Shown piece after piece: positions 2,039-44,018 of a stretch of 64,000 bases of DNA. Every line of letters begins with the position of its first letter. Position 1 is the first letter of the stretch. Source of the DNA: Candidatus Saccharimonadota bacterium (GTDB lineage: Bacteria; Patescibacteriota; Saccharimonadia; CAILAD01; GCA-016700035); assembly GCA_046350755.1 (NCBI GenBank), contig JAXLZV010000001.1, positions 11,510 to 75,509 of the forward strand, given 5' to 3'. Made by a program: the position numbers and the translations under genes. The notes under the pieces were generated by a model that had not been told where the DNA came from, searched no databases, and saw only the letters and a list, made by a program, of their open reading frames with translations.

Positions 2039-3109
2039 ATGAAACTTCTTACGCGCTTTTTGACATTCGTATTGTCGCTACTCTTGAGTGGCCTTATCAT
2101 TGCGTGGTCAACCTTAACCGTGCTCGGCTCCGCTACCACGGTTAATGGCATACTGATGCGTACAAAGGTATATGATCTGGCAGCTGAACAAACTCGTACT
2201 AGTTTGCAAAACCAGCCCAATATTCCAGCCCAATATAAAACAGTATTTGCCACCGCGCTCAATAACGCCCTGACGGCCGAGACGATGCAGGCTGTTATTC
2301 AGCCGCTGCTAGTCGATATGATTGGGTGGCTAAATCAACCTGGAGAGACTCCGCCACCGCGGCTGGTAGTTAATCTGTCTCCGGTCAGGTCGGCACTAGT
2401 GACCTCTGTCCAAAAGCTAGGGTTGTCTCCAGTTGAGCTGCTGGTGGTCGAGGCTCAAATTAATCAACAGCTACCTGATCAACTCGATATTGCTCAGGCG
2501 GCGAGTATTGGTAGTGGTGGGGCTTTGGCAATTAGCCCATCACCAGCTCCAGTGGCGCCAGAAAATCAGTACATGGCGTCGCTTCGACAAATAAAGGCCG
2601 TCTATACCTCAACCCGGACATTTGCCTACTTTGGATTGGCGGCGCTTGTCTTATTAACCATTCTGGTAGTGTTTTTGTCTCGACATGAGGGCCGGGGCAT
2701 GATGCGCCGTCCGGCCTGGGTATTTTTGAACGCCGGTATATTGGTAAGCGTGTTGTGGATCGCGGTGCAGTATTTTACCCGTGATGCATCACTTGGCAGC
2801 GTACAGGGTGCCCAGGCTGCCTCGACGGTCGGGCTCTTGTTGGCCCGCGAGGTGGTGGCTATAACGATTTGGTATGGTTTAGCCAGTATAGTGGCTGGAG
2901 GCGTGCTCTATGGTTTGTCGTTTTTTATTCACAAACTACCACCGACGACCCCAGGTGCGAAACGCTTAGCGCCACAGCCACCAACCACTCCAGTCCAGCC
3001 GCCAGCAACGAAGCTGGCTGTATCGCCCGCTGCGCAGATACAACCTACAACAGCTCCGTCCGACCCTTCCAGCGCGGCTTCACCAGCTCATACTGAATCA
3101 GTGAAGTGA
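2039..3109 (+). CDS. hypothetical membrane protein with Pro/Thr-rich C-terminal tail
   Basis: 356-aa ORF with N-terminal TM segment, internal TM helices and a PTTP-rich low-complexity C-terminus. No recognisable catalytic motif. Confidence 0.5.
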   Translation: MKLLTRFLTFVLSLLLSGLIIAWSTLTVLGSATTVNGILMRTKVYDLAAEQTRTSLQNQPNIPAQYKTVFATALNNALTAETMQAVIQPLLVDMIGWLNQPGETPPPRLVVNLSPVRSALVTSVQKLGLSPVELLVVEAQINQQLPDQLDIAQAASIGSGGALAISPSPAPVAPENQYMASLRQIKAVYTSTRTFAYFGLAALVLLTILVVFLSRHEGRGMMRRPAWVFLNAGILVSVLWIAVQYFTRDASLGSVQGAQAASTVGLLLAREVVAITIWYGLASIVAGGVLYGLSFFIHKLPPTTPGAKRLAPQPPTTPVQPPATKLAVSPAAQIQPTTAPSDPSSAASPAHTESVK

Positions 3110-5132
3110 ACAGTAGTCCCATGACAACGATATTGGTGATTGGCGCGAGGAGCTGAGCGAAAATATTTTGGCGCGCCTCGAGGGCGATAATGATGCGAGT
3201 GACGTAGGCAGCCGCCAAGGCGATGGCGACTTGCAAGAGATGAATTCTTGATCCTTCAAGAATATCCAGCCCCAAGATTACCACTGGTGCTGTGAAGATG
3301 AAGAGACCGCCAAGTACCAGAAAAATTGTCAGCGGGAAGTGAAAACGTAGGGCTGGGTAGTAACGTTGTATGTCATCTTCAATGATCGCGCGTAAACCGA
3401 GATGGTTTTGACTGGTGGCAACATCGGATGCCCGATACAGCTTAGCCTTCAGGCCTTGTAGGCGAGAACGATGGAACAGCTCTTGATCCTCGAGAGGGCT
3501 GGCTTTAACCGAAGCAAAGCCCTTAAGATCCCGAACTTTTGGTACATCGAAGGCAATGATGCCACCGTGGGCGGTTGAGCGCTCAGGAGCATGTTCTTGG
3601 AGGTAGGCGCCGGGGTAGGCGGCCAGCATCAGGTATTGGTTATGGCTGAGAATAGCTTTTTGGGCGAAGGATTTATTTTGATCAGACGGTAGCAGGGAAA
3701 GAAAATCAAGCTTTTCAGTTTCCATGATCGAAGCGATTTGGGCCAGGGCATTAGGCATCAGCACGGTGTCGGCTGAGACGAGCACAGCATAGTCACCAGT
3801 CGCTTGCTTCAGTAGCTGGTCGGCAGCCCAGGCATTAATGCCCCAGCCGGCTTGAATAGGGTCAATCTTGACTATTTTGAGGTGTTTATCGGTGTAGGTT
3901 GAAGCGATTTTGGCCGTATTGTCATCACTTCCAAGATCAGTAAATAGAATCTCGTAATCAGGGTAGTTTTGGCCGAGGGCCGCGAGCAGCGTCGACGAAA
4001 TATTCTCCGCTTGATTGTAGGCATGGATAAGGATTGAAATCCGTGGCCATTCATCGAGGCGTTGCGTTTTTGGCCGACGAAAGACTGCAAAATTGTAGGC
4101 GATCAAAAAGAGCTGGGCGAAAGCGAAGAGTGTACAAAAAGTCAGAATGTAGTCGAGTCGACTTGGCCCCAGCTGGAAGGGATCGAGGACAAACAGCATC
4201 AGTTGGGTAATCCAGAAGCCGATAACACCATTCAGCCACATAAAATTCGTCCAGGCACGCCGAAACTTGGGTGATTGGGCGTCAGACGTGTATTTCATAA
4301 ACGCGCCGGCGTTGAGGGCGTATAGACCAATGAGCAGGCCGGCTAGCAGCGAAGATGGCAAGGCGACGATTCCCGTTACGACTGCCGCGAGAATATAGAG
4401 CCAAAAGCTGAACCGAATCGTTCGACGTGTGCCCCACTGGGTAGCGATGGAGCGAATCTTGCCCGCTCGGTCGGGGATGATGTCTTGAATCGCTCCCATG
4501 GCGTGGCTGGCCATGCCCCAGGCCATGAAAGCGATGACGATTAGCCAGTTGATCGCTCCTGCTGGACTCACCAAGTAGCCGAAGATGACTGGGGCGACGA
4601 AGTGGCAGGCAGAATTAATCGAATCGAGTAGTGGTATTTCTTTGAAGCGCAAGCCTTTTACTGAGTATGACAGAGCTAGGAAAACAGTCACCGCTAAAGC
4701 AATTTGCCCAGTGAGGCTGATGAGACTGCCGAGCCAAACCAGCGCCAGGATATTTGTGACCCAGATGGCAATCCAAAGGATACTGCGCTGATTGGGCGCC
4801 ACGATCGAGCCTTCAACACCTCCCTTACGCGGATTCTTGAGGTCGGATTCATAGTCATAGATGTCGTTGACGCCATAGACGAGGAGGTTATAGGGCAGGA
4901 GGAAATATACCAGCCCAGCCCAAAATATTTGGTCGAACTGCCCACCACTGATCAAGTAGACGACTACGAAGGGAAAGGCGGTATTGATCCAGCTGACGGG
5001 TCGACTAGCCGCGAGAACGGCGCGGAGTTGAGCGCCGAGGCCGGGTTTTGCGCTTTGGGCTTTGGGCTTTGGGCGTGACTCGGCTTGATGGGGATGACGT
5101 TGGGTCGGTTGATGATGTGATTGGTTTGGCAT
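3045..5132 (-). CDS. UbiA-family prenyltransferase (lycopene elongase-like) fused to a GT2 glycosyltransferase
   Basis: The N-terminus carries the UbiA motif NDIYDYESD inside TM helices. The central domain RISILIHAYNQ..ILFTDLGSDDNT is a GT-A/GT2 signature, followed by more TM helices. The gene sits in a crt cluster. Confidence 0.55.
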   Translation of the reverse strand: MPNQSHHQPTQRHPHQAESRPKPKAQSAKPGLGAQLRAVLAASRPVSWINTAFPFVVVYLISGGQFDQIFWAGLVYFLLPYNLLVYGVNDIYDYESDLKNPRKGGVEGSIVAPNQRSILWIAIWVTNILALVWLGSLISLTGQIALAVTVFLALSYSVKGLRFKEIPLLDSINSACHFVAPVIFGYLVSPAGAINWLIVIAFMAWGMASHAMGAIQDIIPDRAGKIRSIATQWGTRRTIRFSFWLYILAAVVTGIVALPSSLLAGLLIGLYALNAGAFMKYTSDAQSPKFRRAWTNFMWLNGVIGFWITQLMLFVLDPFQLGPSRLDYILTFCTLFAFAQLFLIAYNFAVFRRPKTQRLDEWPRISILIHAYNQAENISSTLLAALGQNYPDYEILFTDLGSDDNTAKIASTYTDKHLKIVKIDPIQAGWGINAWAADQLLKQATGDYAVLVSADTVLMPNALAQIASIMETEKLDFLSLLPSDQNKSFAQKAILSHNQYLMLAAYPGAYLQEHAPERSTAHGGIIAFDVPKVRDLKGFASVKASPLEDQELFHRSRLQGLKAKLYRASDVATSQNHLGLRAIIEDDIQRYYPALRFHFPLTIFLVLGGLFIFTAPVVILGLDILEGSRIHLLQVAIALAAAYVTRIIIALEARQNIFAQLLAPITNIVVMGLLFTSLIQYELVKPRWKGRTELL

Positions 5133-5427
5133 AGTGCTCCTGAAGTTTTTGCCACAGCAGTGGCGCTATGTACAATGCTACCACCAAGTAGGCGATATCT
5201 TCTATCGGCCACGAGACTATTTTGAATCCCAGTACTTTTTGCCAGTCATAGCGCACGATTGCCAGGCTAGTAAGGTAGGTATTAAAGATGACCATCGCGA
5301 AGTAGAGCAAGACGGCGAGGGCGAGACGGTGCTGGCTGTTATCGGCCCTAGGTAGCCAGCGAGTGGCTAGCAGCCAAGCTACTAGCATGAAGCCTAGGTT
5401 GAGTAATACATACGTGTATGACTTCAC
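5005..5427 (-). CDS. lycopene cyclase domain protein (heterodimeric CrtYe/Yf-type subunit); 3' end uncertain
   Basis: A core of about 100 aa with three TM helices (LLYFAMVIFNTYLTSLAIVRYDW) resembles the small lycopene-cyclase-domain subunits of C50 carotenoid clusters. The basic disordered tail overlaps the next gene's start by 128 nt. Confidence 0.5.
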   Translation of the reverse strand: MKSYTYVLLNLGFMLVAWLLATRWLPRADNSQHRLALAVLLYFAMVIFNTYLTSLAIVRYDWQKVLGFKIVSWPIEDIAYLVVALYIAPLLWQKLQEHYAKPITSSTDPTSSPSSRVTPKAQSPKRKTRPRRSTPRRSRG

Positions 5428-5804
5428 GGCTGAGCCCGCTTTTTTGTCTGCCGGACTTGAGTCAGGCGCTTGTGATAGACGCGGCGTAACCAGACGTCGG
5501 CTAGTAGGCAGCTATACACTAGAAGCGTCAAAAAGCCGACTTCTTCAATCGGGAGATTGGGCGTGGTGAGATTAAGACCGAGCGTAAAACGAGGATTTGT
5601 ATAAAAGATACCCAGGATAATGCCGGCAATATCCCAGATAAGAAAAAACCCGACCATTAGGCCTAAGGTGGCCAGTGTCGCTTGGCGAGCGCCGGGCCGG
5701 CTCGAAAAATAGACAAGCTTCCAGCGGTAGTCGGCCAGCGTCAGGCCGCTCAGACTCACGAGTAAGATCGCCGCGTATGCCCAATGTGAGTAGAGCCAGT
5801 TCAT
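5424..5804 (-). CDS. lycopene cyclase domain protein (second subunit)
   Basis: The internal Met at 5804 (MNWLYSHWAYAAILLV..) is chosen over the track start at 6005, which would overlap crtI. Three TM helices; adjacent to the other cyclase-domain ORF. Confidence 0.5.
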   Translation of the reverse strand: MNWLYSHWAYAAILLVSLSGLTLADYRWKLVYFSSRPGARQATLATLGLMVGFFLIWDIAGIILGIFYTNPRFTLGLNLTTPNLPIEEVGFLTLLVYSCLLADVWLRRVYHKRLTQVRQTKKRAQP

Positions 5805-5827
5805 ATATCCATAGTATACTAGGTGAA

Positions 5828-7333
5828 ATGACACGAAAGAAACGCACTGCAATTGTGATTGGAGCTGGTATTGGTGGTTTGGCCACCGCTGCTCGCTTAG
5901 CAAAAGATGGTTGGCAGGTAACGCTGCTTGAGAAGGAGCCATTGATCGGCGGACGAGCCTATCGTCTCGATCAAGATGGTTATCGATTCGATACTGGTCC
6001 GACAATTTTAATGATGACTGATGTCTTGTATGATACCTTCAAATATTGTGGCAAGGACTTTGACGATTATATTTCGCTACAGCAACTTGAGCCCAACTAC
6101 CAAGTATTTTTCCCGGATGGGCAAAAAATCGAAGTCAGCTCGAATTTGCCGCGGTTTGCTAAGGAGCTGGCAAAGATTGATGAAAAGGCGCCGGAACAGT
6201 TTTATCGCTACTTTGCTGATGTGGCGAAGATATACCGGATAGCTCGCGGGCAATTTATTGATAAGAATTTTGATAAGCTGACTGATTTTATCGATATCAA
6301 AGCTGGTGCTCAACTCTTTAAAGGTCGTGGCCTGATGAAATTGTATAGTTTTGTGTCGCGCTACTTTACAGATCCGCGTTTGCGACAGTTATTTTCGTTT
6401 CAATCGATGTACTTGGGCGTGACTCCCTACGAAGCACCAGCGGTATACTCAGTGGTGAGTTATATGGAGACCGGTCTGGGGATTTGGTACCCCAAGGGCG
6501 GTATGCATGCCCTGCCACGTGCCTTTGGGAAGTTGTGCGAAGATCTTGGGGTTACCATCCGGACTGAGACACCAGTTGCTAGGATCGACATCGAAAATGG
6601 TCGGACGACCGGCGTGGTGCTGGAGGATGGCAGCCATCTCAAGAGTGATATTGTCATATCAAATGCTGATTTGACGTACAGCTATAAGAATCTGATTGCC
6701 CCCGAACATCGTCGGCGCTATCCCGATCGAAAAGTTGATGCCTTGAAGCAGGCCTCGAGCGCCATGTTATTTTACTGGGGAGTCGATGCTCCGCTCGATG
6801 GACTCCTGCATCACAATGTCTATTTTTCCGAAGATTTCAAACATAATCTTGAGGAAATATTTAAACAAAAAGTATTGCCTGACGACCCGGCCTTTTATGT
6901 CTATATTCCGACCAAGACTGATCCCGGCTTGGCACCGAAGGGCAAGCACGTCTTGTATATACTTGTGCCCGTGCCGAATCTCGATTCTCAGGTGGATTGG
7001 GAGAAAGCTGTACCTAAGGTTAAAGAACGCGTTCTGGAGCGGATGAAAACCGTGCTGGGTGCTGACGTGGCCAAAAAGATCGAGACTGAAGCCGTGTTTA
7101 CGCCTCAAGACTTTCTCACTCGCTTCAATCTGACCGATGGGTCGGCCTTTGGTCTGAGTCATTATTTCTTCCAGTCAGGCTACTTTCGCCCCCATAACGT
7201 CAGTCGGGACGTCAAAGGCCTGTACTTCGTCGGTGCCTCAACCTATCCCGGTAGTGGTGTACCAATGGTGACATTATCTGGTAAGCTGGTCGCAGAACGA
7301 ATTCAATCTGATGTCGAAGCTGGAACTATCTGA
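5828..7333 (+). CDS. crtI: phytoene desaturase
   Basis: The start is reset to the ATG at 5828 after an AGGTGA RBS (MTRKKRTAIVIGAGIGGLATAARLAKDGW is the FAD Rossmann fold). Length and conserved blocks are typical of CrtI-family desaturases. Confidence 0.8.
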   Translation: MTRKKRTAIVIGAGIGGLATAARLAKDGWQVTLLEKEPLIGGRAYRLDQDGYRFDTGPTILMMTDVLYDTFKYCGKDFDDYISLQQLEPNYQVFFPDGQKIEVSSNLPRFAKELAKIDEKAPEQFYRYFADVAKIYRIARGQFIDKNFDKLTDFIDIKAGAQLFKGRGLMKLYSFVSRYFTDPRLRQLFSFQSMYLGVTPYEAPAVYSVVSYMETGLGIWYPKGGMHALPRAFGKLCEDLGVTIRTETPVARIDIENGRTTGVVLEDGSHLKSDIVISNADLTYSYKNLIAPEHRRRYPDRKVDALKQASSAMLFYWGVDAPLDGLLHHNVYFSEDFKHNLEEIFKQKVLPDDPAFYVYIPTKTDPGLAPKGKHVLYILVPVPNLDSQVDWEKAVPKVKERVLERMKTVLGADVAKKIETEAVFTPQDFLTRFNLTDGSAFGLSHYFFQSGYFRPHNVSRDVKGLYFVGASTYPGSGVPMVTLSGKLVAERIQSDVEAGTI

Positions 7334-8399
7334 CGAACTGAAACTAGCCATTGGTCGCATTAAGACCGATGTGGATCGCGAACTGGCGATTTTTTTTGAT
7401 GTGAAGATTGCTGAGGCCGGTAAACTTGATCCTCAGTACAAACGGCTTCTCCAAGAAATGAAGAAATTTGCCTTACGAGGCGGTAAGCGGCTACGACCGT
7501 TTATGGCTTGGCTAGGCTGGCAGATTGCTGGCGGCAAGAATTACGATCATTTTATTCAAACAGTGATGGCCTGGGAGCTGTATCACAACTTTGCCATCAT
7601 TCATGACGATATTATGGATAATGACGACACGCGTTATGGTGGCCCAAATATCAAGGGGGCTTATGAGCGGTTGTTTCGGCGCAGTCATTCGGCTGAGGTA
7701 GCTGATTTACACGCCCGTAATATGGCCTTACTAGCTGGCGATATTGCGGTTGGCTTGACCATCGAAGTCTTGCAGAACGCCCCTTATCCGCCAGAGATTA
7801 AAGAACGTCTGCAGCGCGATATGCTCAAGCTTCATTTTTCGTTGGCCGGGGGACAGATGCTTGATGATCTAGCGGTTATAACTCGTGATATGAATCTCGC
7901 CAAAATACGTAAAGTCTACCTCTATAAAACGGCCCGTTATAGCATGGTGGCGCCGATGCAGTCAGGCGCGATCCTGGCCGGGGCCAATGATACGATTCTC
8001 AATATTATTGAGCGCTATGGTGTCCACGCCGGCATCGCTTATCAGATTACCGATGATCTCTTAGGTATGTACGGCACGGCCAAAGAAATTGGTAAGCCGA
8101 CCATCACAGATCTTCGCGAAAAGAAGAAGACGATTCTGATGTACTACGGACTGCAGTTTGCAAACGCTGCTGACAAAGCCGTCTTGCTAGCTAAGTGGGG
8201 GAACCCGCGCGTGACTTCCAGTGATCTCAAGCTTGTTCGCAAGATTTTAAATGATAACGGCGCGAAGGCCAAGACTATCTTCCTGGCTCAAGCCGAAGCA
8301 GTCGCTGCGAAAAAAGCCATCGGTAAGTTGGCGATGCCTGGGGAGTTACCGAAACTGTTTGAAGACTTTACTGACTATTTGGTGAGTCGCAGCGCGTGA
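7311..8399 (+). CDS. crtE: geranylgeranyl diphosphate synthase (polyprenyl synthetase)
   Basis: First Asp-rich motif IIHDDIMDNDD and second Asp-rich motif ITDDLLG. The 5' end overlaps the crtI 3' end by 23 nt. Confidence 0.8.
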   Translation: MSKLELSDELKLAIGRIKTDVDRELAIFFDVKIAEAGKLDPQYKRLLQEMKKFALRGGKRLRPFMAWLGWQIAGGKNYDHFIQTVMAWELYHNFAIIHDDIMDNDDTRYGGPNIKGAYERLFRRSHSAEVADLHARNMALLAGDIAVGLTIEVLQNAPYPPEIKERLQRDMLKLHFSLAGGQMLDDLAVITRDMNLAKIRKVYLYKTARYSMVAPMQSGAILAGANDTILNIIERYGVHAGIAYQITDDLLGMYGTAKEIGKPTITDLREKKKTILMYYGLQFANAADKAVLLAKWGNPRVTSSDLKLVRKILNDNGAKAKTIFLAQAEAVAAKKAIGKLAMPGELPKLFEDFTDYLVSRSA

Positions 8400-9244
8400 C
8401 CAGCCTGGCGCAGAGCTACCGTGCCTGTCGGCGAATTACCGCTCGCGCTAGCTCGACGTTCTATTTAGCCTCTTTGTTGTTTGATGCCCCGATTCGGCGC
8501 GATATTCAGGTATTGTATGCGTTTTGTCGGGTGGCGGATGATATCGTCGATGCCTCCAAGCATAGTGATGAGCAGAAGCGAGCTCAGTTGAAAGCCATGC
8601 AGCAAGCCATCGATACTCATCAGCAGTGCGAGGTCGAGCCAGAGATCTGGCCAGCTTTGTTTGCGATCCAGGCGAGATACCGACTGCCGAAGGCGCAGTT
8701 AAAAAATGTCCTTCGCGGAGTTGGTAGTGATATTGTTTTTACCCAGCCGAAGACACTAGCCCAACTCGATGAGTATAGCTACTATGTGGCGGGAGTGGTC
8801 GGCTTATTGTCGGCAAGGATCCTTGGCGCGCATAAAGCGAGTACCTATCGTGGTGCCCGCCAGCTGGGAATCGCCATGCAATATACGAATATTATCCGCG
8901 ATGTGGCGGCAGATCACGCCCTCGATCGGATTTATATTCCAAAATCAATTATGCGCGAGTACGGGGTAAAGCCGAGTATGCTCGATGAGTTTCCGCAGGC
9001 ACCAGAGCTGATAGCGGCCCTGGCGCGGTTAACGGAGCAGGCCGAAGGCTACTACGCCGAAGCTGAAGCAGCGATTCGTGATTTACCCGCCGGCTATCAA
9101 AAGCCGGTGCGAGTTGCGACGGCTTTATATCGAGGGGTTCTCGAACGCGTGAAGCAAAAGCGGTATACTGTATTAGATGGTCGCGTTCGACTCAATCGCC
9201 TCGATAAGCTGGCGGTAGTCTGGGACACCTATCGCGGCCGCTAA
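8396..9244 (+). CDS. crtB: phytoene synthase
   Basis: The GTG start overlaps the crtE stop (GTGA). Squalene/phytoene synthase motifs YAFCRVADDIVD and NIIRDVAADHALDRIYIP. Confidence 0.8.
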   Translation: MTSLAQSYRACRRITARASSTFYLASLLFDAPIRRDIQVLYAFCRVADDIVDASKHSDEQKRAQLKAMQQAIDTHQQCEVEPEIWPALFAIQARYRLPKAQLKNVLRGVGSDIVFTQPKTLAQLDEYSYYVAGVVGLLSARILGAHKASTYRGARQLGIAMQYTNIIRDVAADHALDRIYIPKSIMREYGVKPSMLDEFPQAPELIAALARLTEQAEGYYAEAEAAIRDLPAGYQKPVRVATALYRGVLERVKQKRYTVLDGRVRLNRLDKLAVVWDTYRGR

Positions 9245-9268: not shown

Positions 9269-10750
9269 ATGCCCAACTCAACCCCTCAAAAACGCCCCAA
9301 GCGACTTGTCACTGTCGATGGCATTCGCTATTCGCTTGATACTGGCGATAGTGTTGGCCCAGCTCCTCGCCGACCTGCCCAGCCACACCCGGTATCGGTG
9401 AGCGAGACGCAGTCGAAATCAGTCATTCCGGCGAGTCCACCAGAGAAAAAGCCCTCGCTGCGTCGATCGCGGAGAAATGTGCGGGTCCCCGAACAGCCCT
9501 TGCCAGCGGCCGTTAAGCTAACCAGCCATAACCAGGCCGTCATGCATCCTGATCCAAAATTGCGGACCGCTCAGTTATTACACCCTCACAATGTTTCGCA
9601 TCCGGCCCTACCACTGCCGACCAGTCGCCAGCGACCGGCTGGCAAATTATCAATCTGGCAGTCAGTCGTCAAGCCGTCACTAACAGAGACTCATGATCGT
9701 CGCACAGTCTGGGCAAGTATCGGTATCGCTTTGTTGTCGCCAATAACGTGGCTACTCTTAGCGCTGCCGGCAGTAGTGATTTTTGCTGCCGATATACGGC
9801 GTGAGTCGGTCGGCAAGATCTTCGCCAGCACATCGAGCTGGATACTCGCCCAAACGCCGACAAGTATTTTGACCTTGCTAGCCGTATTCTCGGTGCTGCT
9901 CGGCATTGTTTGGCTAGTCCGTCACTCGCTCGTACTGGTTGCCTACGGTGTGCAGGTCCGACGCATCGACAATCGTCTGGTGTCAGGCCATCAGCTCTGG
10001 TGGCAGACCCTGGCGAAGATTTCGCGTCTGGTTTTGGTGGCACTTCTCGACGGCTTAATGGTGGTGACGGTTTGTATGCTGGCTGGACTGGCATTGCAAT
10101 GGATACTTGGTTCGGCAACACAAAATATGGCCGTCTGGTGGAGCCTTTTCTTCAATCTCACTGTATTCATGCTGGTGGCACTATTGTGGCTGCTCGCGAC
10201 ACATCGCCCACTGACGCGTGTCATGCTGTCAATCACTAATCGACCGGCCAGTTTTTTGGTGGTGAAGGGCTTCGGGCTGATTTTTCGCAACTGGATTCGT
10301 GCACTCGGTCTTGGCTTTGTCTGGCTGGCAGCAGCTGGTTTGACAGCCTTCTTGTTAGCCGGCATTTCTTGGGCGACAACAATATATGGGTTGGTCCAGA
10401 TCACTACTTCGATCGGACGGGTCGCGCTCTGGGCGGTGTCAGGTAGTCTGCTGATTTTTATTTTGACGAGTTTCACTGTTTGGTCGAACGGCTATTGGCC
10501 ACGGGCTTATCACATGCTCGCGCACCGAGCTTACCCGCGCACCGTGTCGCGGTTTATGGCCGATGATCCACGAGTGAAATCACGCCTAAAAACCATCCTT
10601 CACGTCAGTCTCATCATTATTGCCTACTTACTGATGGTTACAGCCTTACTCTGGTACGCCCGTCCGATTATTACCCAGCGGCTCGATACCGTGCAGCAAA
10701 ATGTACCGGACACCCTGGATAAGCTGCTTCCCAAGCTCCAATCACGTTAA
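9269..10750 (+). CDS. hypothetical polytopic membrane protein with basic/Pro-rich N-terminal tail
   Basis: 493-aa ORF with a disordered N-terminal 130 aa followed by at least eight predicted TM helices. No catalytic motif recognised. Confidence 0.5.
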   Translation: MPNSTPQKRPKRLVTVDGIRYSLDTGDSVGPAPRRPAQPHPVSVSETQSKSVIPASPPEKKPSLRRSRRNVRVPEQPLPAAVKLTSHNQAVMHPDPKLRTAQLLHPHNVSHPALPLPTSRQRPAGKLSIWQSVVKPSLTETHDRRTVWASIGIALLSPITWLLLALPAVVIFAADIRRESVGKIFASTSSWILAQTPTSILTLLAVFSVLLGIVWLVRHSLVLVAYGVQVRRIDNRLVSGHQLWWQTLAKISRLVLVALLDGLMVVTVCMLAGLALQWILGSATQNMAVWWSLFFNLTVFMLVALLWLLATHRPLTRVMLSITNRPASFLVVKGFGLIFRNWIRALGLGFVWLAAAGLTAFLLAGISWATTIYGLVQITTSIGRVALWAVSGSLLIFILTSFTVWSNGYWPRAYHMLAHRAYPRTVSRFMADDPRVKSRLKTILHVSLIIIAYLLMVTALLWYARPIITQRLDTVQQNVPDTLDKLLPKLQSR

Positions 10751-16129: not shown

Positions 16130-19100
16130 ATGAATAAAGTCAGAAACACAGACCCCACCAAGTCAACCAATTCAAATCTGAGGCGCATCCATGACATCCG
16201 TCATCCCCAGTCCTCAGACCAACCAACTAACCGACCCCGCCGTGTCGGTCGTCTGTTATCATGGCGACTCCCAAACCGTCGAGTCCTCCGAGCTCGTCTA
16301 GTTACCATTACAAACAAATGGACCATCACTACAGCCCGTCTGCGCCAGTTGGCACTCGGTGGTCTGTCGTTGTCTAAGCTAGATCTTCGTAAGTTGTCAG
16401 TAGCTCTCGATCCCCACAAATTCTCTCTTCCTACCCTCGATCCCCGCAAGCTCGACTTTTACAAGCTTCATCCCCGCAATCTATCCCGCGCCAAACTGAC
16501 TACCGGTGCTAAGACTATCCATCATCACACTAAAAACTTCCTCCATTCACCCCGAGCAGTCATCCAGGCTGTCTTAGTGCTGGCCCTAGTTCTTAGCTTT
16601 GTCCAGTTTGCGCGGGCGATTACTCCGACCATCACCACCCAAGCTGCGACTAACCTAGACTGGAATAAAGCTGCTCTCAATGGTCAAGTCAACGATGATC
16701 ATGGTGAGCAAGTTACCGAGACTGGCTTTGAGTATGGCCCTGATACCAACTATGGCGACACCACTCAAGCTACGGCTGAGTATAAATTCTCTAGCATTAT
16801 TGGTGGTGCTTTAGCTGATGGTACTACGAATCGACCTGGTAGCATCACCACCGACAGTGCGGGCAATGTCTATGTGGCCGATACTGATAACCACCGCATC
16901 CAGAAGTTTGACTCATCTGGTACTTTCATTACTAAATGGGGCACCAATGGCTCCGGCGATGGTCAGTTTAGCAATCCTCAAGGCATCGCCACCGACAGTG
17001 CGGGCAATGTCTATGTGGCCGATACTGATAACCACCGCATCCAGAAGTTTGACAGTGCTGGTACTTTTATTGCCAAGTGGGGTGGTAGAGGGGCAGCCAA
17101 TGGGAAGTTTAACTATCCCCAAGGCCTCACCACCGACAGCGCTGGCAATGTTTATGTGGCGGATACATATAACCGCCGCATCCAGAAGTTTAATAGCACT
17201 GGCACGTATATCTCCCAGTGGGGCACCAATGGCTCCGGCGATGGTCAGTTTAGCAATCCTCAAGGCATCGCCACCGACAGTGCGGGTAATGTCTATGTGG
17301 CGGATACCAATAACCACCGCATCCAGAAGTTTAATAGCGCTGGCACATATATCTCGCAGTGGGGAACGAATGGCTCCGGTGACGGTCAGTTCAACCAACC
17401 CCAAGGCCTTACCACCGACAGTGCTGGCAATGTCTATGTGGCGGATACTAGTAACCACCGCATCCAGAAGTTCGACAGCGCCGGTACCTACCTCACCCAG
17501 TGGGGCACGGGTGGCTCCGGCGATGGTCAGTTCTACTCTCCCACCGGCATCACCACCGACAGCGCGGGTAATGTCTATGTGGCGGATAGGGACAACCACC
17601 GCATCCAGAAGTTTAATAGCTCTGGTACTTTTATTACCAAATGGGGTAATTATGGCTCCGGCGATGGTCAGTTTGACTACCCCCAAGGCCTCACCACCGA
17701 CAGCGCGGGTAATGTCTATGTGGCGGATAGTGGTAACAACCGTATCCAGAAGTTTGATAGTACTGGTAACTTCATTACTAAGTGGGGTAAAAATGGTGGT
17801 GATGGGAGCTCTGGCTTTGGCAATGGTGAGTTCGACTATCCCTCCGGCCTCACCACCGACAGCGCGGGTAATGTCTATGTGGCGGATACATATAACTACC
17901 GCATCCAGAAGTTCGACTCGTCCGGTACTTTCATCACTAAATGGGGTAATCCTGGCTCCGGCGATGGTCAGTTCTACTCCCCTCAAGGCCTCACCACCGA
18001 CAGTGCTGGCAATGTTTATGTGGCGGATACCAATAACCACCGCATCCAGAAGTTTGACTCATCCGGTACTTTTATTACCAAATGGGGTAATTATGGCTCC
18101 GGTAATGGTCAGTTTAGCAATCCCCAAGGCCTCACCACCGACAGTGCTGGCAATGTCTATGTGGCGGATAGGGACAACTCCCGCATCCAGAAGTTTGATA
18201 GTGCCGGTACGTATATTTCCCAGTGGGGCAGTCAAGGCTCCGGCGATGGTCAGTTTGACTACCCCCAAGGCCTCACCACCGACAGCGCGGGTAATGTCTA
18301 TGTGGCGGATACCAATAACCACCGCATCCAGAAGTTTGATAGCTCTGGTACTTTTATTACCAAATGGGGTAATCCTGGCTCCGGCGATGGTCAGTTCTAC
18401 GAGCCTCAAGGCCTCACCACCGACAGCGCGGGTAATGTCTATGTGGCGGATAGGAACAACCACCGCATCCAGAAGTTCACCCTGGTCGCTAATAGTGATA
18501 CCTTTTCAAGTCAAATAGAGAATCTCAGTTGTGATACTAGCTACCACTACCGCGCTTATGCTACTAATGCCAGTGGTACGAGTTATGGTACCGATCAAGT
18601 CTTCACCACCCCATCATGCGTTCCCTTAGCTCCAAGTAATCTGCGGGTCGAAGTCCAGTCCTTTAATAGTATTGAGGTTGTTTGGGATCGACCGGATTAT
18701 ACTGGTTCAGCTGGCATTGACCATTACATCATCTACTACCGCAAAGCCGGCACTGGTAGCTGGCAACAGGTTAGTAGTAATAATGATGCAGAATCTGTCA
18801 TTGTATCCGGCCTGGAGCAGTTTACTAGCTACGACATGAAAGTCAGTGCCGTAAACTATGACGGCCATGAGAGCCCAGCTACCGCCGAAGTCTCAGAGAC
18901 TACTCCGCGAGTTAACTTTGGCCTAGTCCGTAACTGTCAGGATTTACAGAATATTAATAACAACCTGAATGTTAGCTACGAGCTAGTTAATGACATCGAC
19001 TGCTCCGATACCATCAACTGGAATGCTGGTGCGGGCTTTGTCCCTCTAGGAGGTTGCCAGTATGATTTTTATAGTTTGTCAGAACCAACTCCCTTTAAAG

Positions 19101-22100
19101 GAATCCTAGCTGGTAATAACCATGTTATTGCTGGCCTCTATGCCGACACCACGGCTAGTCCGGGCTGCGTGACAGCTGGTCTATTTGGTAATACTCGTGG
19201 TGCTCTCGTCCAAGACCTCAAACTAACGGATCCAGTCTTTAAGGGTGGCTATGTTGGTCTGGTAGCTACCGCCAACAATACCGACATCACTAATGTCCAA
19301 GTCTATAATGGAGCCTACGATGGTACGTCAGGTTTTGGTGGTGGTGGGATTGCTGGCTTTATGTTCTTTGATGACGCTGCTAGCCACGATCTAGCTAAGA
19401 ATAGCTTTACCGGTAGTATTGTAGCTAGTTGTGATACGAGTACTATGGGGATGATTGGTGGGTTATATAGCTATTTAGTAGCATTTGGCCAGAATACAAT
19501 CAATCTCCACGATTCCTACGCCGATGCAGATATTAGTGTGAACTCAGCTAATGCTTGTTTGGACGTAAGTGGTATTGGTGGTGGGATTGGTTATATCGTG
19601 GCTGGCAATACTGCTATGAGTGTCAATAATATTTACGCTGCCGGTAGTCAGAATGTCTCTATTACCGAAAACGCTAACGGCCAGTTCAACTACCCCCAAG
19701 GCCTCACCACCGACAGTGCTGGCAATGTCTATGTGGCCGATACTGATAACCACCGCATCCAGAAGTTTGACTCATCTGGTACTTTCATTACTAAATGGGG
19801 CACCAATGGCTCCGGCGATGGTCAGTTTAGCAATCCTCAAGGCATCGCCACCGACAGTGCGGGCAATGTCTATGTGGCCGATACTGATAACCACCGCATC
19901 CAGAAGTTTGACAGTGCTGGTACTTTTATTGCCAAGTGGGGTGGTAGAGGGGCAGCCAATGGGAAGTTCAACTACCCCCAAGGCATCACCACCGACAGCG
20001 CGGGTAATGTCTATGTGGCCGATACTGATAACCACCGCATCCAGAAGTTTGACTCATCTGGTACTTTCATTACTAAATGGGGCACCAATGGCTCCGGCGA
20101 TGGTCAGTTTAACTCTCCCACCGGCATCACCACCGACAGCGCGGGTAATGTCTATGTGGCGGATACATATAACTACCGCATCCAGAAGTTTGATAGCTCT
20201 GGAACTTTTATTACCAAATGGGGCACCAATGGCTCCGGCAACGGTCAGTTCTACTCCCCTCAAGGCCTCACCACCGACAGCGCGGGTAATGTCTATGTAG
20301 CAGATACATATAACCACCGCATCCAGAAGTTTAATAGCGCTGGCACATATATCTCGCAGTGGGGAACGAATGGCTCCGGTGACGGTCAGTTCAACCAACC
20401 CCAAGGCCTTACCACCGACAGTGCTGGCAATGTCTATGTGGCGGATACTAGTAACCACCGCATCCAGAAGTTTAATAGCTCTGGCACGTATATCTCCCAG
20501 TGGGGAAGCCAGGGTTATGTTAGCTGGACTAATATTGGTGGCCTAATTGGTGTCGCAAATTATTATTCGGCTTCCAATAGTCTAACCAACAGCTTCGCCC
20601 ATGTCGCTCAAACGATTAATGTTGGCGACCAGGTGGCCGGTGCCCTAGTCGGTGCGGCCTACTATGATACGCCACCGACTATCACCGGCAACTACGCCGA
20701 TACCACGCTGGCTGGTCGAGCCAACTGCTTTGGGGGTGGCGAGAGCGAAGACACCGCCAAATGTACTGGTATTGCTGGTCAACCCAATTATTTCTACAAC
20801 AACCATACCAACCCACCGCTTGATCAGTGGAATTTCACGGATCTTTGGGAAACCACACCAACGCTACCAGTCTTCTCAGCTGTAGCCGTCAACACTCTAA
20901 CTCCCATCTCAGCTGAGCGCCTAGCCCGCTACAATCCACCCGTTCCACCAACCCCAACCCCAGTTCCAGCTACTCCAATTAGCCCCAGCCCAACACCAGA
21001 ACCAACCCCAGATACCAGTGGTAGTCGTAGTGCTGCCATCACCCAGACTACCAACCAGACACCTCCACCCCCAGCCGAGCCGGGTGGTATCCTGGGGGTT
21101 CTAAAAGACATTGTCCGCGCCATTCCGGAACCAGTCCTGCGCAGCTTCCCCTACGTCGTGGTTGGTCTCATGGGGCTACTATCTCTAGCTATGTTGTTTG
21201 AAATGTATCGTCAGTCTCGACGCTTAGCTCAACTTAATCTCCTGCTTGCCAAACAAGCCAAAGTTGCCGAGGATCGTGATACTTTCTGGCATCTCGCTGC
21301 CAACTATCTACGCTCACCAATTACTCTCTTAGTTGGTAGTGTCGATCTGATGACTGACCCTAGTCCAAAGACTAAAGCTCAACCAACTACCGCTCCAGCT
21401 AAACTGACCCTTGGTCTGACCAGCCTGGTTCATGATATGCAGACTAAGGTCATGAAGATTATGGACCAGATCGAAACTAGCCAGAGCTTACAGGCCATTC
21501 GCTGGCCAGCTCGAACTCAGCCTCGCCACCTCTTAACTAACTGGCGTTTCTGGGTGCCCCTGACTGTCACCGGTCTACTGATTGCCCTGTCTAACTATGT
21601 CGCCCAAAACTTCCGTAACATTGAAGTCTCCACTCTTAATCTAGCCGTCCAAGCCTTGCTGTTTATTGTTGTTACCATTGCTATCTACTGGGTGGTTGGT
21701 GCTCTCGGCCTAACTCGTAGTAAGGTGACTCGGGCTCAAACTCAATTGGATCGTCAGGCTAAAGACCTAGATAAGGCTCGAATGCAGCTTATTGACGAGA
21801 CCGCCACTGTCCTATCTAGTGACATCACTCGACTAGATGCCATGCTAGCGAAGCTCCCAGCTAAGGAGCCAATGCTGCTAGCTATGCAAGAGGGAAGTCG
21901 TCGATTACATGAGATTGTATCGAGTTTCCAGCAACTGATCTTAGCTCAGAACAACCGTCTTGATACCATCTCGCCAGCTAGCGCCTCAACCGACCTTAGC
22001 CAAGCTATTGCTAGTAGCTTAAATGAACTAGCCGCCACCATTAAGTCTAAAGACATCACCGTTGTCCAGTCTGGCACCATAGCTGGAGCTGTACCTGGTA

Positions 22101-22441
22101 GTGAGCCAGTTATTAAGCGTGTTATTGGGAGTATTCTAGAGAATGCCATCCAGTTTAGCCCTAAAGGCGGTCAAGTTACCATCCAATCTCAGCAAACTGG
22201 CAGTGGTAGTAGTGTTACCATCACCGATAAGGGTCCTGGTGTGAGTAAGACTCAACAGGCACATATCTTCCAGCTCTTTACCAAAGCTGATGGCAAGAAT
22301 GCCCTACAAATGGACCATGATGGACTGGGGGTTGATCTCTATCTCGACAAGCAGATCATGCAACACTTACAGGGTGGCATTGACCTCCAGACTAGTAACC
22401 ACGGGACAGCTGTAACACTGACCTGGCCAGCAGTGGGGTAG
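16130..22441 (+). CDS. giant (2103 aa) membrane protein with 18 NHL repeats (three 6-bladed propellers), FN3, a GLUG-like beta-helix region, a Pro/Thr linker, TM helices and a C-terminal histidine-kinase-like module
   Basis: The basic N-terminal tail is followed by a signal-anchor TM (VIQAVLVLALVLSFVQFA). There are 12 plus 6 NHL repeats of about 40 aa (GNVYVADxxNHRIQKFxSxG), and an FN3 domain (LAPSNLRVEV..YDMKVSAVN). The GGLIG and GIGGGIG tracts are the GLUG-like region. After a TM segment near aa 1670 comes an H-box-like FWHLAANYLRSPITLLVG. The C-terminus has an N-box ILENAIQFSP, G1 ITDKGPGV and G2 DGLGVDLYL. Confidence 0.65.
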   Translation: MNKVRNTDPTKSTNSNLRRIHDIRHPQSSDQPTNRPRRVGRLLSWRLPNRRVLRARLVTITNKWTITTARLRQLALGGLSLSKLDLRKLSVALDPHKFSLPTLDPRKLDFYKLHPRNLSRAKLTTGAKTIHHHTKNFLHSPRAVIQAVLVLALVLSFVQFARAITPTITTQAATNLDWNKAALNGQVNDDHGEQVTETGFEYGPDTNYGDTTQATAEYKFSSIIGGALADGTTNRPGSITTDSAGNVYVADTDNHRIQKFDSSGTFITKWGTNGSGDGQFSNPQGIATDSAGNVYVADTDNHRIQKFDSAGTFIAKWGGRGAANGKFNYPQGLTTDSAGNVYVADTYNRRIQKFNSTGTYISQWGTNGSGDGQFSNPQGIATDSAGNVYVADTNNHRIQKFNSAGTYISQWGTNGSGDGQFNQPQGLTTDSAGNVYVADTSNHRIQKFDSAGTYLTQWGTGGSGDGQFYSPTGITTDSAGNVYVADRDNHRIQKFNSSGTFITKWGNYGSGDGQFDYPQGLTTDSAGNVYVADSGNNRIQKFDSTGNFITKWGKNGGDGSSGFGNGEFDYPSGLTTDSAGNVYVADTYNYRIQKFDSSGTFITKWGNPGSGDGQFYSPQGLTTDSAGNVYVADTNNHRIQKFDSSGTFITKWGNYGSGNGQFSNPQGLTTDSAGNVYVADRDNSRIQKFDSAGTYISQWGSQGSGDGQFDYPQGLTTDSAGNVYVADTNNHRIQKFDSSGTFITKWGNPGSGDGQFYEPQGLTTDSAGNVYVADRNNHRIQKFTLVANSDTFSSQIENLSCDTSYHYRAYATNASGTSYGTDQVFTTPSCVPLAPSNLRVEVQSFNSIEVVWDRPDYTGSAGIDHYIIYYRKAGTGSWQQVSSNNDAESVIVSGLEQFTSYDMKVSAVNYDGHESPATAEVSETTPRVNFGLVRNCQDLQNINNNLNVSYELVNDIDCSDTINWNAGAGFVPLGGCQYDFYSLSEPTPFKGILAGNNHVIAGLYADTTASPGCVTAGLFGNTRGALVQDLKLTDPVFKGGYVGLVATANNTDITNVQVYNGAYDGTSGFGGGGIAGFMFFDDAASHDLAKNSFTGSIVASCDTSTMGMIGGLYSYLVAFGQNTINLHDSYADADISVNSANACLDVSGIGGGIGYIVAGNTAMSVNNIYAAGSQNVSITENANGQFNYPQGLTTDSAGNVYVADTDNHRIQKFDSSGTFITKWGTNGSGDGQFSNPQGIATDSAGNVYVADTDNHRIQKFDSAGTFIAKWGGRGAANGKFNYPQGITTDSAGNVYVADTDNHRIQKFDSSGTFITKWGTNGSGDGQFNSPTGITTDSAGNVYVADTYNYRIQKFDSSGTFITKWGTNGSGNGQFYSPQGLTTDSAGNVYVADTYNHRIQKFNSAGTYISQWGTNGSGDGQFNQPQGLTTDSAGNVYVADTSNHRIQKFNSSGTYISQWGSQGYVSWTNIGGLIGVANYYSASNSLTNSFAHVAQTINVGDQVAGALVGAAYYDTPPTITGNYADTTLAGRANCFGGGESEDTAKCTGIAGQPNYFYNNHTNPPLDQWNFTDLWETTPTLPVFSAVAVNTLTPISAERLARYNPPVPPTPTPVPATPISPSPTPEPTPDTSGSRSAAITQTTNQTPPPPAEPGGILGVLKDIVRAIPEPVLRSFPYVVVGLMGLLSLAMLFEMYRQSRRLAQLNLLLAKQAKVAEDRDTFWHLAANYLRSPITLLVGSVDLMTDPSPKTKAQPTTAPAKLTLGLTSLVHDMQTKVMKIMDQIETSQSLQAIRWPARTQPRHLLTNWRFWVPLTVTGLLIALSNYVAQNFRNIEVSTLNLAVQALLFIVVTIAIYWVVGALGLTRSKVTRAQTQLDRQAKDLDKARMQLIDETATVLSSDITRLDAMLAKLPAKEPMLLAMQEGSRRLHEIVSSFQQLILAQNNRLDTISPASASTDLSQAIASSLNELAATIKSKDITVVQSGTIAGAVPGSEPVIKRVIGSILENAIQFSPKGGQVTIQSQQTGSGSSVTITDKGPGVSKTQQAHIFQLFTKADGKNALQMDHDGLGVDLYLDKQIMQHLQGGIDLQTSNHGTAVTLTWPAVG
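16846..18480 (+). repeat. NHL repeat array 1 (12 units of about 120 bp, coding)
   Basis: Tandem 120-nt coding repeats. The segment 16846..17160 is about 96% identical to 19705..20019, and 17310..17470 is identical to 20310..20470. Confidence 0.9.
19690..20500 (+). repeat. NHL repeat array 2 (6 units), near-duplicate of parts of array 1
   Basis: See above; the two duplicated segments lie at constant offsets of 2859 and 3000 bp. Confidence 0.9.
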
Positions 22442-27981: not shown

Positions 27982-28476
27982 GTGAATAAAACGCAAAAAA
28001 AGCCGTCCACTGTTGGGAAAGAAGCCGCCCAGGTAGGACGTTTTGGTATAGTCGGTATCGCCAATACCGCGATTGACTTCATTGTTCTCAATATTATTTC
28101 CCGAGCTACCGGTTGGTCAGATGTCGTGGCCAATGTCCCCGCCGTGATGGTGGCGATGACCTTCAGTTTTTTTGCCAATCGTTATTTTGTCTTTCACAGT
28201 GGGCAGACCAAGAGTATCGGCCGTCAAGCACTCGAGTTCTTCCCGATAACTGCCTTTGGCCTCATTGTAATTCAAGGAGTGGTAATTTGGTTTTTTGAGT
28301 CGGTTTGGCTAGGACCTGTTAATTTTGGCGTGGCGGTCGCCCAAGCCATTGGCGTGCTCAACTTTGTCGATAAACAATTCGTGATCACCAATGGCGTCAA
28401 AGCTGTCGCCACCCTGGCGAGTCTGATCTGGAACTATCTCATGTATAAGAAAGTAGTATTCAAGGACCAGACGTAA
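27982..28476 (+). CDS. GtrA-family small membrane protein (polyprenyl-phosphate sugar handling)
   Basis: A 4-TM protein of about 160 aa, with GIVGIANTAIDFIVLN and FANRYFVFH typical of the GtrA family. Confidence 0.7.
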   Translation: MNKTQKKPSTVGKEAAQVGRFGIVGIANTAIDFIVLNIISRATGWSDVVANVPAVMVAMTFSFFANRYFVFHSGQTKSIGRQALEFFPITAFGLIVIQGVVIWFFESVWLGPVNFGVAVAQAIGVLNFVDKQFVITNGVKAVATLASLIWNYLMYKKVVFKDQT

Positions 28477-30110: not shown

Positions 30111-30883
30111 GCGCCGTCAAGGGGAGTAGGCCGAAGCTAGCCATCTTGATACCGACGCTCAATGAAGAGAAGCGAATCGGTAAAACCCTTGAGGCCTTAG
30201 CAGACTATCTCAAGGCTAAGCAATATAATGCTGAAGTCATCGTCGTTGATGCGAATAGCTCTGATAAGACAAAAGCCGTTGCTGACGCAGTCGGTAAGCG
30301 GTTCTCGCATTATCGTTTCCTCCAGACTGGTCCCAAAGTCGGTAAAGGCAAGCAAATTCGTGACGGTATGATGGCGGCTCAGGCAGATTACATTATGTTT
30401 ATGGATGCTGATCTAGCAACGCCTCTCAAGTACCTAGATGACGTCTATCAGATAATCGAACGCGGTGGCAAGGTTGGTATTTGTGTGCGTAATCTCAATG
30501 AAAGCCATAAAGGGATTCGTAAGTTTATCTCAACCTTTGGTAATTGGCTAGTGCAGACATTGATCGTGCCTGGCATTAAGGACACGCAGTGTGGTTTTAA
30601 GGTCTTCGAAGCTGATGCCGCACGCGAAATATTCGGTCGACAGCGGATCGTCGGCTGGGGCTTTGATATGGAGGTTTTAGCAGTCGCTCGTAAGCTCGGC
30701 TATTCTATCGAGCTGATTGAAGTGCCAGATTGGCGGGATGTCGTTGAGGGGAGCAAAATCTCTGGGAACGGTGCTCTGAAGGTGGCCTTGCAGACCTTCT
30801 CGGATCTTTTGAAGATTAAGTGGGGCTTGATTACCGGTAAGTATAAAAAAGTGAGCTTTCGTTATGTCCCGTATAAAAACTAA
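30107..30883 (+). CDS. GT2 polyprenyl-phosphate glycosyltransferase (DPM1/GtrB/ArnC-like)
   Basis: LAILIPTLNEEKRIGKTLEAL..EVIVVDANSSD and the DAD motif FMDADL. The start overlaps the upstream stop. Confidence 0.75.
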   Translation: MSAVKGSRPKLAILIPTLNEEKRIGKTLEALADYLKAKQYNAEVIVVDANSSDKTKAVADAVGKRFSHYRFLQTGPKVGKGKQIRDGMMAAQADYIMFMDADLATPLKYLDDVYQIIERGGKVGICVRNLNESHKGIRKFISTFGNWLVQTLIVPGIKDTQCGFKVFEADAAREIFGRQRIVGWGFDMEVLAVARKLGYSIELIEVPDWRDVVEGSKISGNGALKVALQTFSDLLKIKWGLITGKYKKVSFRYVPYKN

Positions 30884-41471: not shown

Positions 41472-41533
41472 CGCATCGGCACACCCTCAAATACCAGCCG
41501 CTCGTTATTGAAGGCTTCTGATATCATGTAGGT

Positions 41534-42040: not shown

Positions 42041-42060
42041 TCGCCACGCATGAAAACTTT

Positions 42061-43959: not shown

Positions 43960-44018
43960 TTCTGCCGAGGGGAAGCTATCTTTTATGTACCGATCGCATC
44001 AGCTGCTAGAATGTAACT

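Follow-up and report, generated by a model that had tools for sequence, protein, structure and literature searches.

Comparison with described C50 carotenoid systems

In Corynebacterium glutamicum, C50 carotenoids are synthesized by the products of crtE-cg0722-crtB-crtI-crtYe-crtYf-crtEb, and deletion and complementation have established that lycopene is converted to flavuxanthin by CrtEb and then to decaprenoxanthin by CrtYe/f (PMC3598387). The natural end product of this system is a glucosylated cyclic C50 carotenoid. Natural decaprenoxanthin is a diglucoside formed via a C50-specific glycosyltransferase (PMC10998873), the glycosylation step having been unassigned in C. glutamicum in 2012 (PMC3598387). 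Here, we describe a related locus located at positions 3045-9244 of a stretch of 64,000 nucleotides (hereafter the window) from a Candidatus Saccharimonadota bacterium, in which a putative lycopene elongase of the UbiA type and a family 2 glycosyltransferase (GT2) form a single polypeptide. We propose, with a probability of roughly 60%, that this locus is a complete, vertically inherited pathway whose likeliest product would be a cyclic C50 carotenoid glycoside, with predicted ring type, sugar and acceptor. It consists of six intact genes organized in two divergent operons, crtI and the genes of a polyprenyl (geranylgeranyl diphosphate (GGPP)-type) synthase and a phytoene synthase on the plus strand, two cyclase genes and the gene of the 695-amino-acid (aa) UbiA-GT2 fusion on the minus strand:

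3045-5132, minus strand: UbiA-GT2 fusion gene (695 aa; Pfam UbiA and GT2; NF009608)
5005-5427, minus strand: cyc2, CrtYf-like cyclase subunit (140-aa open reading frame (ORF); PF18916; PIED motif)
5424-5804, minus strand: cyc1, CrtYe-like cyclase subunit (126 aa from the ATG at 5804; TIGR03462; PIEE motif)
5805-5827, no strand: divergent intergenic spacer (23 bp), holding the palindrome AGTATACT
5828-7333, plus strand: crtI, the sole CrtI-family desaturase gene of the locus (501 aa; TIGR02734)
7311-8399, plus strand: crtE-like short-chain polyprenyl diphosphate synthase gene (PF00348; GGPP synthase by context)
8396-9244, plus strand: crtB, phytoene synthase gene (282 aa; PF00494)

The window carries the same enzyme set as C. 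glutamicum, and its order cyc1-cyc2-elongase is that of crtYe-crtYf-crtEb. Furthermore, a Corynebacterium orthologue of the elongase belongs to the same NF009608 family and shares 45% identity with the UbiA half of the fusion. In contrast to C. glutamicum, the genes are split into two divergent operons without a MarR/CrtR regulator or an MmpL-type gene, CrtI and CrtB share only about 25-35% identity with their counterparts, and the elongase carries a C-terminal GT2. Fusion of the elongase to another C50 partner has precedents in LbtBC of Dietzia, LitBC and the CrtYf-CrtEb fusions of Micrococcales (PMC2889829). Many of the closest relatives that lack the glycosyltransferase fusion (P0096-P0120) also combine Lycopene_cyc and UbiA in one protein. 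In proteins of the LbtBC/LitBC type, the cyclase occupies the N-terminus of the elongase, whereas in the window it is encoded separately, by a gene that overlaps the elongase out of frame, and the partner added at the C-terminus is a glycosyltransferase.

Two other systems share part of this gene set. In the haloarchaeal lyeJ-cruF-crtD pathway (Halarchaeum plasmid locus L088), the elongase is homologous to that of the window (32% identity, E=5e-23), as is the desaturase (34%); however, LyeJ belongs to NF009516, cruF is present, there are neither cyclases nor a glycosyltransferase, and the product is acyclic. In Patescibacteria from Lake Baikal, C50 genes have been read as lyeJ, crtD and cruF, that is, as a pathway to acyclic bacterioruberin for which a role in membrane adaptation was proposed, cruF being located far away in a Saccharibacteria genome (PMC9948471). 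The genes of that study come from the same phylum, and its elongase and desaturase genes are evidently of the kind found in the window, but the cyclase pair, the GT2 fusion and the conserved chromosomal site were not reported (PMC9948471). The original prediction, which was made from the window alone, had considered glycosylated C50 carotenoids unexpected in such an organism. This holds only in part: C50 genes as such had been reported before in Patescibacteria/Saccharibacteria, albeit without the fusion and the cyclases (PMC9948471). In the literature searched, which left out most subscription journals, we found no published description of an elongase-glycosyltransferase fusion; the conserved locus, its spread over two phyla and its decay forms are likewise undescribed there, the C50 cluster type itself being known.

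Organization of the locus

The six ORFs and the motifs quoted for them in the original prediction were all recovered in place. Its junctions also hold on the sequence: 23 bp separate the ATG of cyc1 (5804) from that of crtI (5828), crtI and crtE overlap by 23 nt and crtE and crtB overlap by GTGA. A second GTGA overlap, between cyc1 and cyc2, had gone unnoticed. In addition, the last 128 nt of cyc2 (5005-5132) lie within the fusion gene, which is read there in a different frame. The ATG at 5132, which has a GGAG four bases upstream, is the only ATG, GTG or TTG upstream of an invariant S43-R-P45-x-S-W48 motif; since no other start codon precedes this motif, translation of the fusion has to begin at this ATG. 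A public protein that is identical to the fusion over its own length (MFO0954936.1, 647 aa, in the same 90%-identity cluster) is annotated from Ile49, which avoids the overlap with cyc2. This start cuts off the invariant motif and the annotation is probably wrong.

Architecture of the fusion protein

The fusion protein comprises a UbiA domain followed by a GT2 provided with its own membrane helices, as seen in an AlphaFold 2 (AF2) model (69 sequences; mean predicted local distance difference test score, pLDDT, 90.1; predicted template modelling score, pTM, 0.88). In this model, nine UbiA helices are followed by a tenth helix at residues 322-350, an alpha/beta GT-A domain and three hydrophobic helices:

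4185-5030, minus strand: UbiA/CrtEb domain (residues ~35-316), nine transmembrane helices (AF2)
4083-4169, minus strand: linker transmembrane helix (residues 322-350; AF2), equivalent to the N-terminal transmembrane helix of free-standing HpnB/CruG-like GT2 proteins
3348-4055, minus strand: GT-A catalytic domain (residues ~360-595), with D399, D404, the invariant D455 and E550-D551
3084-3338, minus strand: three C-terminal hydrophobic helices (residues 599-683; AF2, hydropathy and alignment with the full-length HpnB model)

Since the tenth helix corresponds to the N-terminal helix of the free-standing enzymes, the two proteins have simply been joined end to end, each retaining its topology. 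In either half, the catalytic Asp residues are conserved in at least 90% of 69 fusion proteins. Moreover, Lys/Arg counts alternate as 7/0/3/0/3/0/3/0/1/0 along the N-terminal tail and the successive loops, and both Asp-rich motifs of the UbiA half, as well as the FRRPKTQR segment located after helix 10 and before the GT-A domain, lie on the positive side. According to this positive-inside pattern, both active sites are presumably cytoplasmic. That elongase and glycosyltransferase are one polypeptide is borne out by the conservation of the fusion across about 95 protein clusters.

The UbiA half groups with bacterial lycopene elongases

The UbiA half matches Pfam UbiA (PF01040, E=2.3e-19, residues 53-299) and carries NDIYDYESD at residues 89-97. 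Its two Asp-rich motifs, N89-D90-x2-D93-x3-D97 and D217-x3-D221, consist of residues that are at least 90% conserved among the fusion proteins aligned. Two models were used for its assignment: NF009608 (PRK13105), an unnamed 'prenyltransferase' model that was calibrated here with reference elongases, and NF009516, the LyeJ-type model. The references scored as follows:

Corynebacterium elongase, canonical crtE-B-I-Ye-Yf-Eb cluster: NF009608 443 bits; NF009516 122 bits
Clavibacter elongase, canonical cluster: NF009608 480 bits; NF009516 137 bits
Halarchaeum LyeJ, annotated crtB-crtI-prenyltransferase-cruF cluster: NF009608 103 bits; NF009516 397 bits

As a LyeJ reference, a Haloferax plasmid hit (H5) was discarded as a paralogous UbiA gene and the Halarchaeum protein (H3) was used instead. 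The window fusion reaches 314 bits on NF009608 (cut-off 217) and fails NF009516 with 146 bits (cut-off 205). It obtains only 33 bits on the ubiA_other model, which is of the MenA/UbiA type. These scores place the UbiA half with lycopene elongases, as originally proposed, and not with MenA/UbiA or chlorophyll prenyltransferases.

Phylogenetic placement, which had been put forward as a test able to overturn this assignment, leaves it standing. When 87 UbiA domains were analysed by neighbour joining with haloarchaeal sequences as the root, the bacterial elongases fell into one group apart from LyeJ (100% bootstrap). Within this group, the fusions of Saccharibacteria are monophyletic (97%), with the clade of unfused actinobacterial CrtEb (98%) as their sister (89%), and the fusions from Chloroflexota (82%) branch below both. 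By family, the UbiA half is thus predicted to be a CrtEb-type lycopene elongase that would convert lycopene to flavuxanthin-type C45/C50 products.

The GT2 half is related to terpenoid glycosyltransferases

The GT2 half matches Glycos_transf_2 (E=1e-15, residues 366-477) and GT2 families across residues 363-569, with the ISILIHAYNQ...DLGSDDNT signature at 366-406. Its closest solved structure is the membrane mannosyltransferase PcManGT (6yv7, E=1e-8). An exhaustive HMMER search with this half recovers thousands of relatives. After the fusions, the best of them are free-standing and 365-400 aa long; their alignments (24-30% identity, E~1e-29 to 1e-31) start at residue ~5-20 of the GT2 half and cover the rest of its 370 residues. 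With the GT2 half alone as query, a word-indexed protein search found almost nothing beyond the fusions, and the genomic context of its best named free-standing hit (P0128, Cyclobacteriaceae) contains no carotenoid genes. Ten free-standing relatives obtain their best scores on HpnB, then on CruG, all below threshold. The GT2 half itself stays far below the equivalog cut-offs of HpnB (102.6 bits against 379), CruG (50.4 against 600) and HpnI (30.3 against 310). On these scores, it is a relative, not a member, of the CruG, HpnB and HpnI families. These enzymes of myxol and hopanoid synthesis share with it an N-terminal transmembrane helix, a GT-A domain and C-terminal transmembrane helices, and they act on hydrophobic terpenoid alcohols; unlike for the GT2 half, no prenyltransferase fusion is known for any of them.

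A Pantoea-type CrtX (GT1, GT-B fold) was considered and ruled out: only GT2 (GT-A) families match, and the AF2 model and the PDB matches are of GT-A type. No GT2 homologue was found within 8 kb of the approximately 60 actinobacterial crtEb genes fetched. The glycosyltransferase role proposed originally is upheld as far as the GT2 domain is concerned; however, the GT2 half is no orthologue of a known CrtX, and its nearest free-standing relatives are HpnB/CruG-like and uncharacterised.

The cyclase pair and the genes for lycopene synthesis

Both small ORFs match the lycopene-cyclase domain, each passing one of two curated models. The cyc1 product, taken from Met68 of a 193-aa ORF, scores 42.1 bits on TIGR03462 (cut-off 39.4) and has no Pfam hit at E<=0.01, while that of cyc2 scores 35.8 bits on Pfam Lycopene_cyc (PF18916, cut-off 27) and remains below the TIGR03462 cut-off with 35.4 bits. 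The length of about 100-127 aa originally given for them suits cyc1 (126 aa); cyc2 extends over 140 aa to its stop, only residues 4-92 constituting the domain. Both contain a PxE(E/D) motif (PIEE in cyc1, PIED in cyc2), a motif of CrtYc/d-type cyclases. According to tblastn, each has its own counterpart in the cyclase gene pairs of actinobacterial clusters with an elongase, cyc1 matching the first gene and cyc2 the second at 27-48% identity. In related loci, cyc1 is 33-58% identical to the first cyclase gene. From these matches, cyc1 and cyc2 are predicted to form a CrtYe/CrtYf-type heterodimeric C50 cyclase, for which the C50 substrate and the ring type (epsilon, gamma or beta) are presumed.

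The CrtI protein, whose start was taken at Met52 of a longer ORF, contains VIGAGIGGLATA and scores 538.7 bits on TIGR02734 (crtI_fam, cut-off 238). More than 115 CrtI clusters share at least 54% identity in the Saccharibacteria/Patescibacteria data. The models of the bifunctional CrtID (438 bits) and of CrtD (321 bits) also match it, each score falling short of the respective cut-off. The crtE-like synthase (PF00348, polyprenyl_synt, E=8e-43) possesses both Asp-rich motifs (DDIMD and DDLLG). It reaches no NCBIfam equivalog cut-off, so its chain length is assigned from context. The crtB product matches PF00494 (SQS_PSY, E=1e-69) and contains both strings quoted for it in the original prediction. 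Its best NCBIfam hit is HpnD, below threshold. An HpnD/squalene-type or C30 synthase was considered on this account and dropped: the hit is undiagnostic because a haloarchaeal CrtB and the CrtB of other C50 clusters share it, also below threshold.

Distribution and inheritance of the fusion

Public data contain a protein (P0001) that is 100% identical to the fusion, and those relatives that are named belong to Candidatus Saccharibacteria. The family comprises about 95 clusters at 90% identity, of which about 75 are of Saccharibacteria type (38-75% identical to the window protein) and about 18 form a second group (30-36% identity) that maps to Chloroflexota. The six genes occur in the same order and on the same strands in nine Saccharibacteria loci; hence, this is no chance arrangement. 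In a relative whose fusion is only about 48% identical, the cluster occupies the same site, with the gene of an unknown membrane protein and secE-nusG-rplK-rplA as neighbours. The cluster is therefore old and vertically inherited. Contamination or recent transfer was rejected given the even G+C across the window, crt locus included, the conserved synteny and the Saccharibacteria housekeeping genes that make up the rest of the window (nusG, rplK, rplA, rplJ, rplL, dnaX, dnaB, recR, cysS, glmS, gltX and others).

The fusions from Chloroflexota (Chloroflexia and Limnocylindrales; L003, L014, L015, L016, L019) are also located in crt clusters with a cyclase pair, in the order cyc-cyc-fusion-crtI-crtB or crtB-cyc-cyc-fusion-crtI. 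As to one or two fusion events, the fusions are paraphyletic in the UbiA tree and come together in the GT2 tree at a bootstrap of only 35%. Furthermore, about ten other Saccharibacteria species harbor an unfused crtE-crtB-crtI-cyc-cyc-crtEb cluster without GT2 (L018, L022, L026, L032, L048, L051, L072, L076, L079 and L082). Their elongases nest in the actinobacterial clade (98% jointly, 70% for their own monophyly), which suggests a separate acquisition and fits a transfer from Actinomycetota, the usual hosts.

Loss of the motifs of one half in divergent fusions

In four divergent fusions from Saccharibacteria (P0061, P0070, P0071 and P0073), neither Asp-rich motif is left in the UbiA half, whereas DLGSxDNT, ADT and SPLED are kept in the GT2 half. 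Three of them are encoded at the following positions:

L091, 8001-9917: fusion ORF of P0061
L004, 8001-9986: fusion ORF of P0073
L090, 8001-9818: fusion ORF of P0071

The decay took place at the same chromosomal site: L091 keeps crtB alone beside the fusion, and L004 and L090 have no crt gene. Within the group with a dead UbiA half, identity amounts to 58% in the GT-A part and 39% in the UbiA part; among proteins with a live UbiA half, it is the reverse (37% and 57%, respectively). Reciprocal forms also exist. In P0068, P0069 and P0072, the UbiA motifs are intact and the nucleotide-binding DxGSxD region of the GT2 is degenerate (for example YIADTNASQKA and YLPKENIQNK), and in P0074 and P0075 the ED of SPLED is missing. 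The two activities are therefore separable.

Proposed pathway and alternatives

We infer the substrates, the order of the steps, the ring type, the sugar and the channelling of intermediates as follows. The products of crtE, crtB and crtI would form GGPP, phytoene and lycopene in turn. The UbiA half would extend lycopene by a C5 unit at either end to a flavuxanthin-like C45/C50 intermediate that is acyclic and hydroxylated, and the cyc1/cyc2 heterodimer would close the end rings. The GT2 half would then use a nucleotide sugar to glycosylate the hydroxyls made by elongation, so that a C50 mono- or di-glycoside would accumulate in the cell membrane. In the fusion protein, the ninth UbiA helix is joined to the helix that opens the free-standing glycosyltransferases at their N-terminus. 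With both active sites cytoplasmic in one membrane unit, the lipid could be handed over directly.

Several points weigh against this proposal. The chain length of the crtE-like product and the number of desaturations carried out by CrtI cannot be predicted from sequence, and the 64-kb window contains no gene of the methylerythritol phosphate or mevalonate pathways for the supply of isopentenyl and dimethylallyl diphosphate. The three C-terminal helices of the fusion fit the positive-inside rule imperfectly. The acceptor of the GT2 half is assigned from the fusion and its context only, because its scores stay below the cut-offs and no homologue lies next to actinobacterial crtEb genes. Finally, as the decayed loci show, an endogenous C50 carotenoid is evidently not required for the GT2 half to be retained. 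Mainly for this reason, our confidence that the enzyme glycosylates its own C50 product is moderate.

This last point leads to the possibility that the acceptor of the GT2 half is a different membrane lipid (for example a polyprenol, a polyprenyl phosphate, another isoprenoid alcohol or a carotenoid of the actinobacterial host), the fusion to the elongase serving mainly as a scaffold. The retention of the GT2 motifs in the four proteins with a dead UbiA half, the inverted pattern of identity in that group, the absence of crtE, crtI and cyclase genes from their loci and the best solved match, a membrane mannosyltransferase of polyprenyl-phosphate type, are all in line with such an acceptor. However, both halves are intact in the window and in most relatives, the fusion gene sits within crt clusters in two phyla, and the free-standing relatives are closer to CruG, HpnB and HpnI than to polyprenyl-phosphate enzymes. 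Moreover, the forms with a dead UbiA half may have gained a new function secondarily. We consider this alternative unlikely. A more speculative extension, which we regard as distinctly improbable, is that the protein is a two-part membrane machine of which evolution can inactivate either half, and that epibionts with a dead-UbiA fusion glycosylate isoprenoid alcohols or C50 carotenoids from their actinobacterial hosts. In that case, epibiont and host would share an economy of pigments and lipids to which the intact window enzyme would belong.

The product could also differ in its carotenoid part. An acyclic bacterioruberin-type C50 carotenoid would require the UbiA half to be a LyeJ-like elongase/hydratase and the CrtI-family enzyme to act as a 3,4-desaturase as well. 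The homologues of lyeJ, crtD and cruF reported in a Saccharibacteria genome (PMC9948471), the sub-threshold scores of CrtI on CrtID and CrtD and its resemblance to the desaturase of the haloarchaeal lyeJ cluster would agree with this. Nevertheless, the UbiA half fails the LyeJ-type model and passes the CrtEb-type one, only one desaturase gene is found at the locus, a tblastn search with the Halarchaeum CruF reveals no cruF homologue in the window (E>1), and a cyclase pair, useless to an acyclic pathway, lies at the crtYe/crtYf position in all type-A loci. With no cruF in the window, a single desaturase, a CrtEb-type elongase and a coupled cyclase pair, a cyclic product is more likely, and we give bacterioruberin only a small chance. 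The cyclases might instead act on C40 lycopene, as CrtYc/Yd-type beta-cyclases do, yielding cyclic C40 carotenoids or a C40/C45/C50 mixture and possibly retinal for rhodopsins. Indeed, CrtYe/f, LitAB and CrtYc/d are homologous, CrtYc/d act on C40 substrates and the domain alone does not tell the function (PMC2889829). In addition, rhodopsins whose retinal source is unexplained exist in Saccharibacteria. Yet neither a rhodopsin nor a carotene-cleaving dioxygenase turned up among the approximately 50 window ORFs scanned, translation of the cyclase genes is coupled to that of an elongase whose motifs are intact, and their best matches are the cyclases of elongase-containing clusters. A C40 function therefore appears highly improbable, and a cyclic C50 glycoside remains the product that we favor.

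Intergenic spacer and neighbouring genes

The palindrome AGTATACT of the divergent spacer, at 5813-5820, contains a TATACT box similar to a -10 element and lies 8 nt from the ATG of cyc1 and 7 nt from that of crtI. A TAGTATACT-like box is found 7-10 nt upstream of the ATG of cyc1 in seven type-A loci, despite differing spacer lengths. A conserved box so close to the ATG suggests that the divergent transcripts may be leaderless or near-leaderless. The AGTATACT box was not flagged by a generic -35/-10 scan, and a generic scan for promoters and terminators found no more sites than in shuffled sequence.

A conserved neighbour always follows crtB:

9269-10750, plus strand: multi-pass membrane protein without family match (493 aa)

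This protein has no Pfam or NCBIfam match, and a homologue occupies the same position in L001, L006, L007 and L009. Where crt genes were lost, an unannotated ORF is kept at this position (440 aa in L004, 497 aa in L091, 213 aa in L090). By its position, it is a candidate member of the pathway. On the other side, the 3' end of the fusion gene overlaps convergently, over 65 nt (3045-3109), the 3' end of an ORF (2039-3109) encoding a 356-aa Pro-rich membrane protein whose homologues in L006, L007 and L009 are encoded at the corresponding position.

Farther in the window, an ORF of 2103 aa (16130-22441) in the thyX-rplJ interval encodes 18 NHL repeats (beta-propellers), fn3 and a C-terminal HATPase_c domain. 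From these domains, it looks like a giant sensor-kinase-like surface protein. Positions 27982-32456 and 40947-45002 carry an envelope glycosylation block (GtrA-like, PMT_2, GT2, PMT_2) and a lipid-modification group that encodes a PEMT-like methyltransferase, a protein with a diacylglycerol kinase domain and the C-terminal domain of an MprF-like lysyl-phosphatidylglycerol synthase.

Implications for Saccharibacteria

The locus shifts the published bacterioruberin reading toward a cyclic and probably glycosylated C50 product. The fusion ties a specific GT2 lineage to the lycopene elongase and thereby provides a candidate enzyme for C50 glycosylation, a step that is poorly characterized in carotenoid biochemistry, as well as a bifunctional part for the engineering of C50 glycosides. 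The series of decayed forms can be viewed as a natural experiment on the role of each half. With their genomes of about 1 Mb, Saccharibacteria live as ultra-small epibionts and are generally thought to depend on their hosts for membrane lipids. In these bacteria, a six-gene pathway is kept at a fixed site next to ribosomal-protein genes across lineages whose fusions have diverged to about 48% identity; hence, a membrane carotenoid matters to Saccharibacteria.

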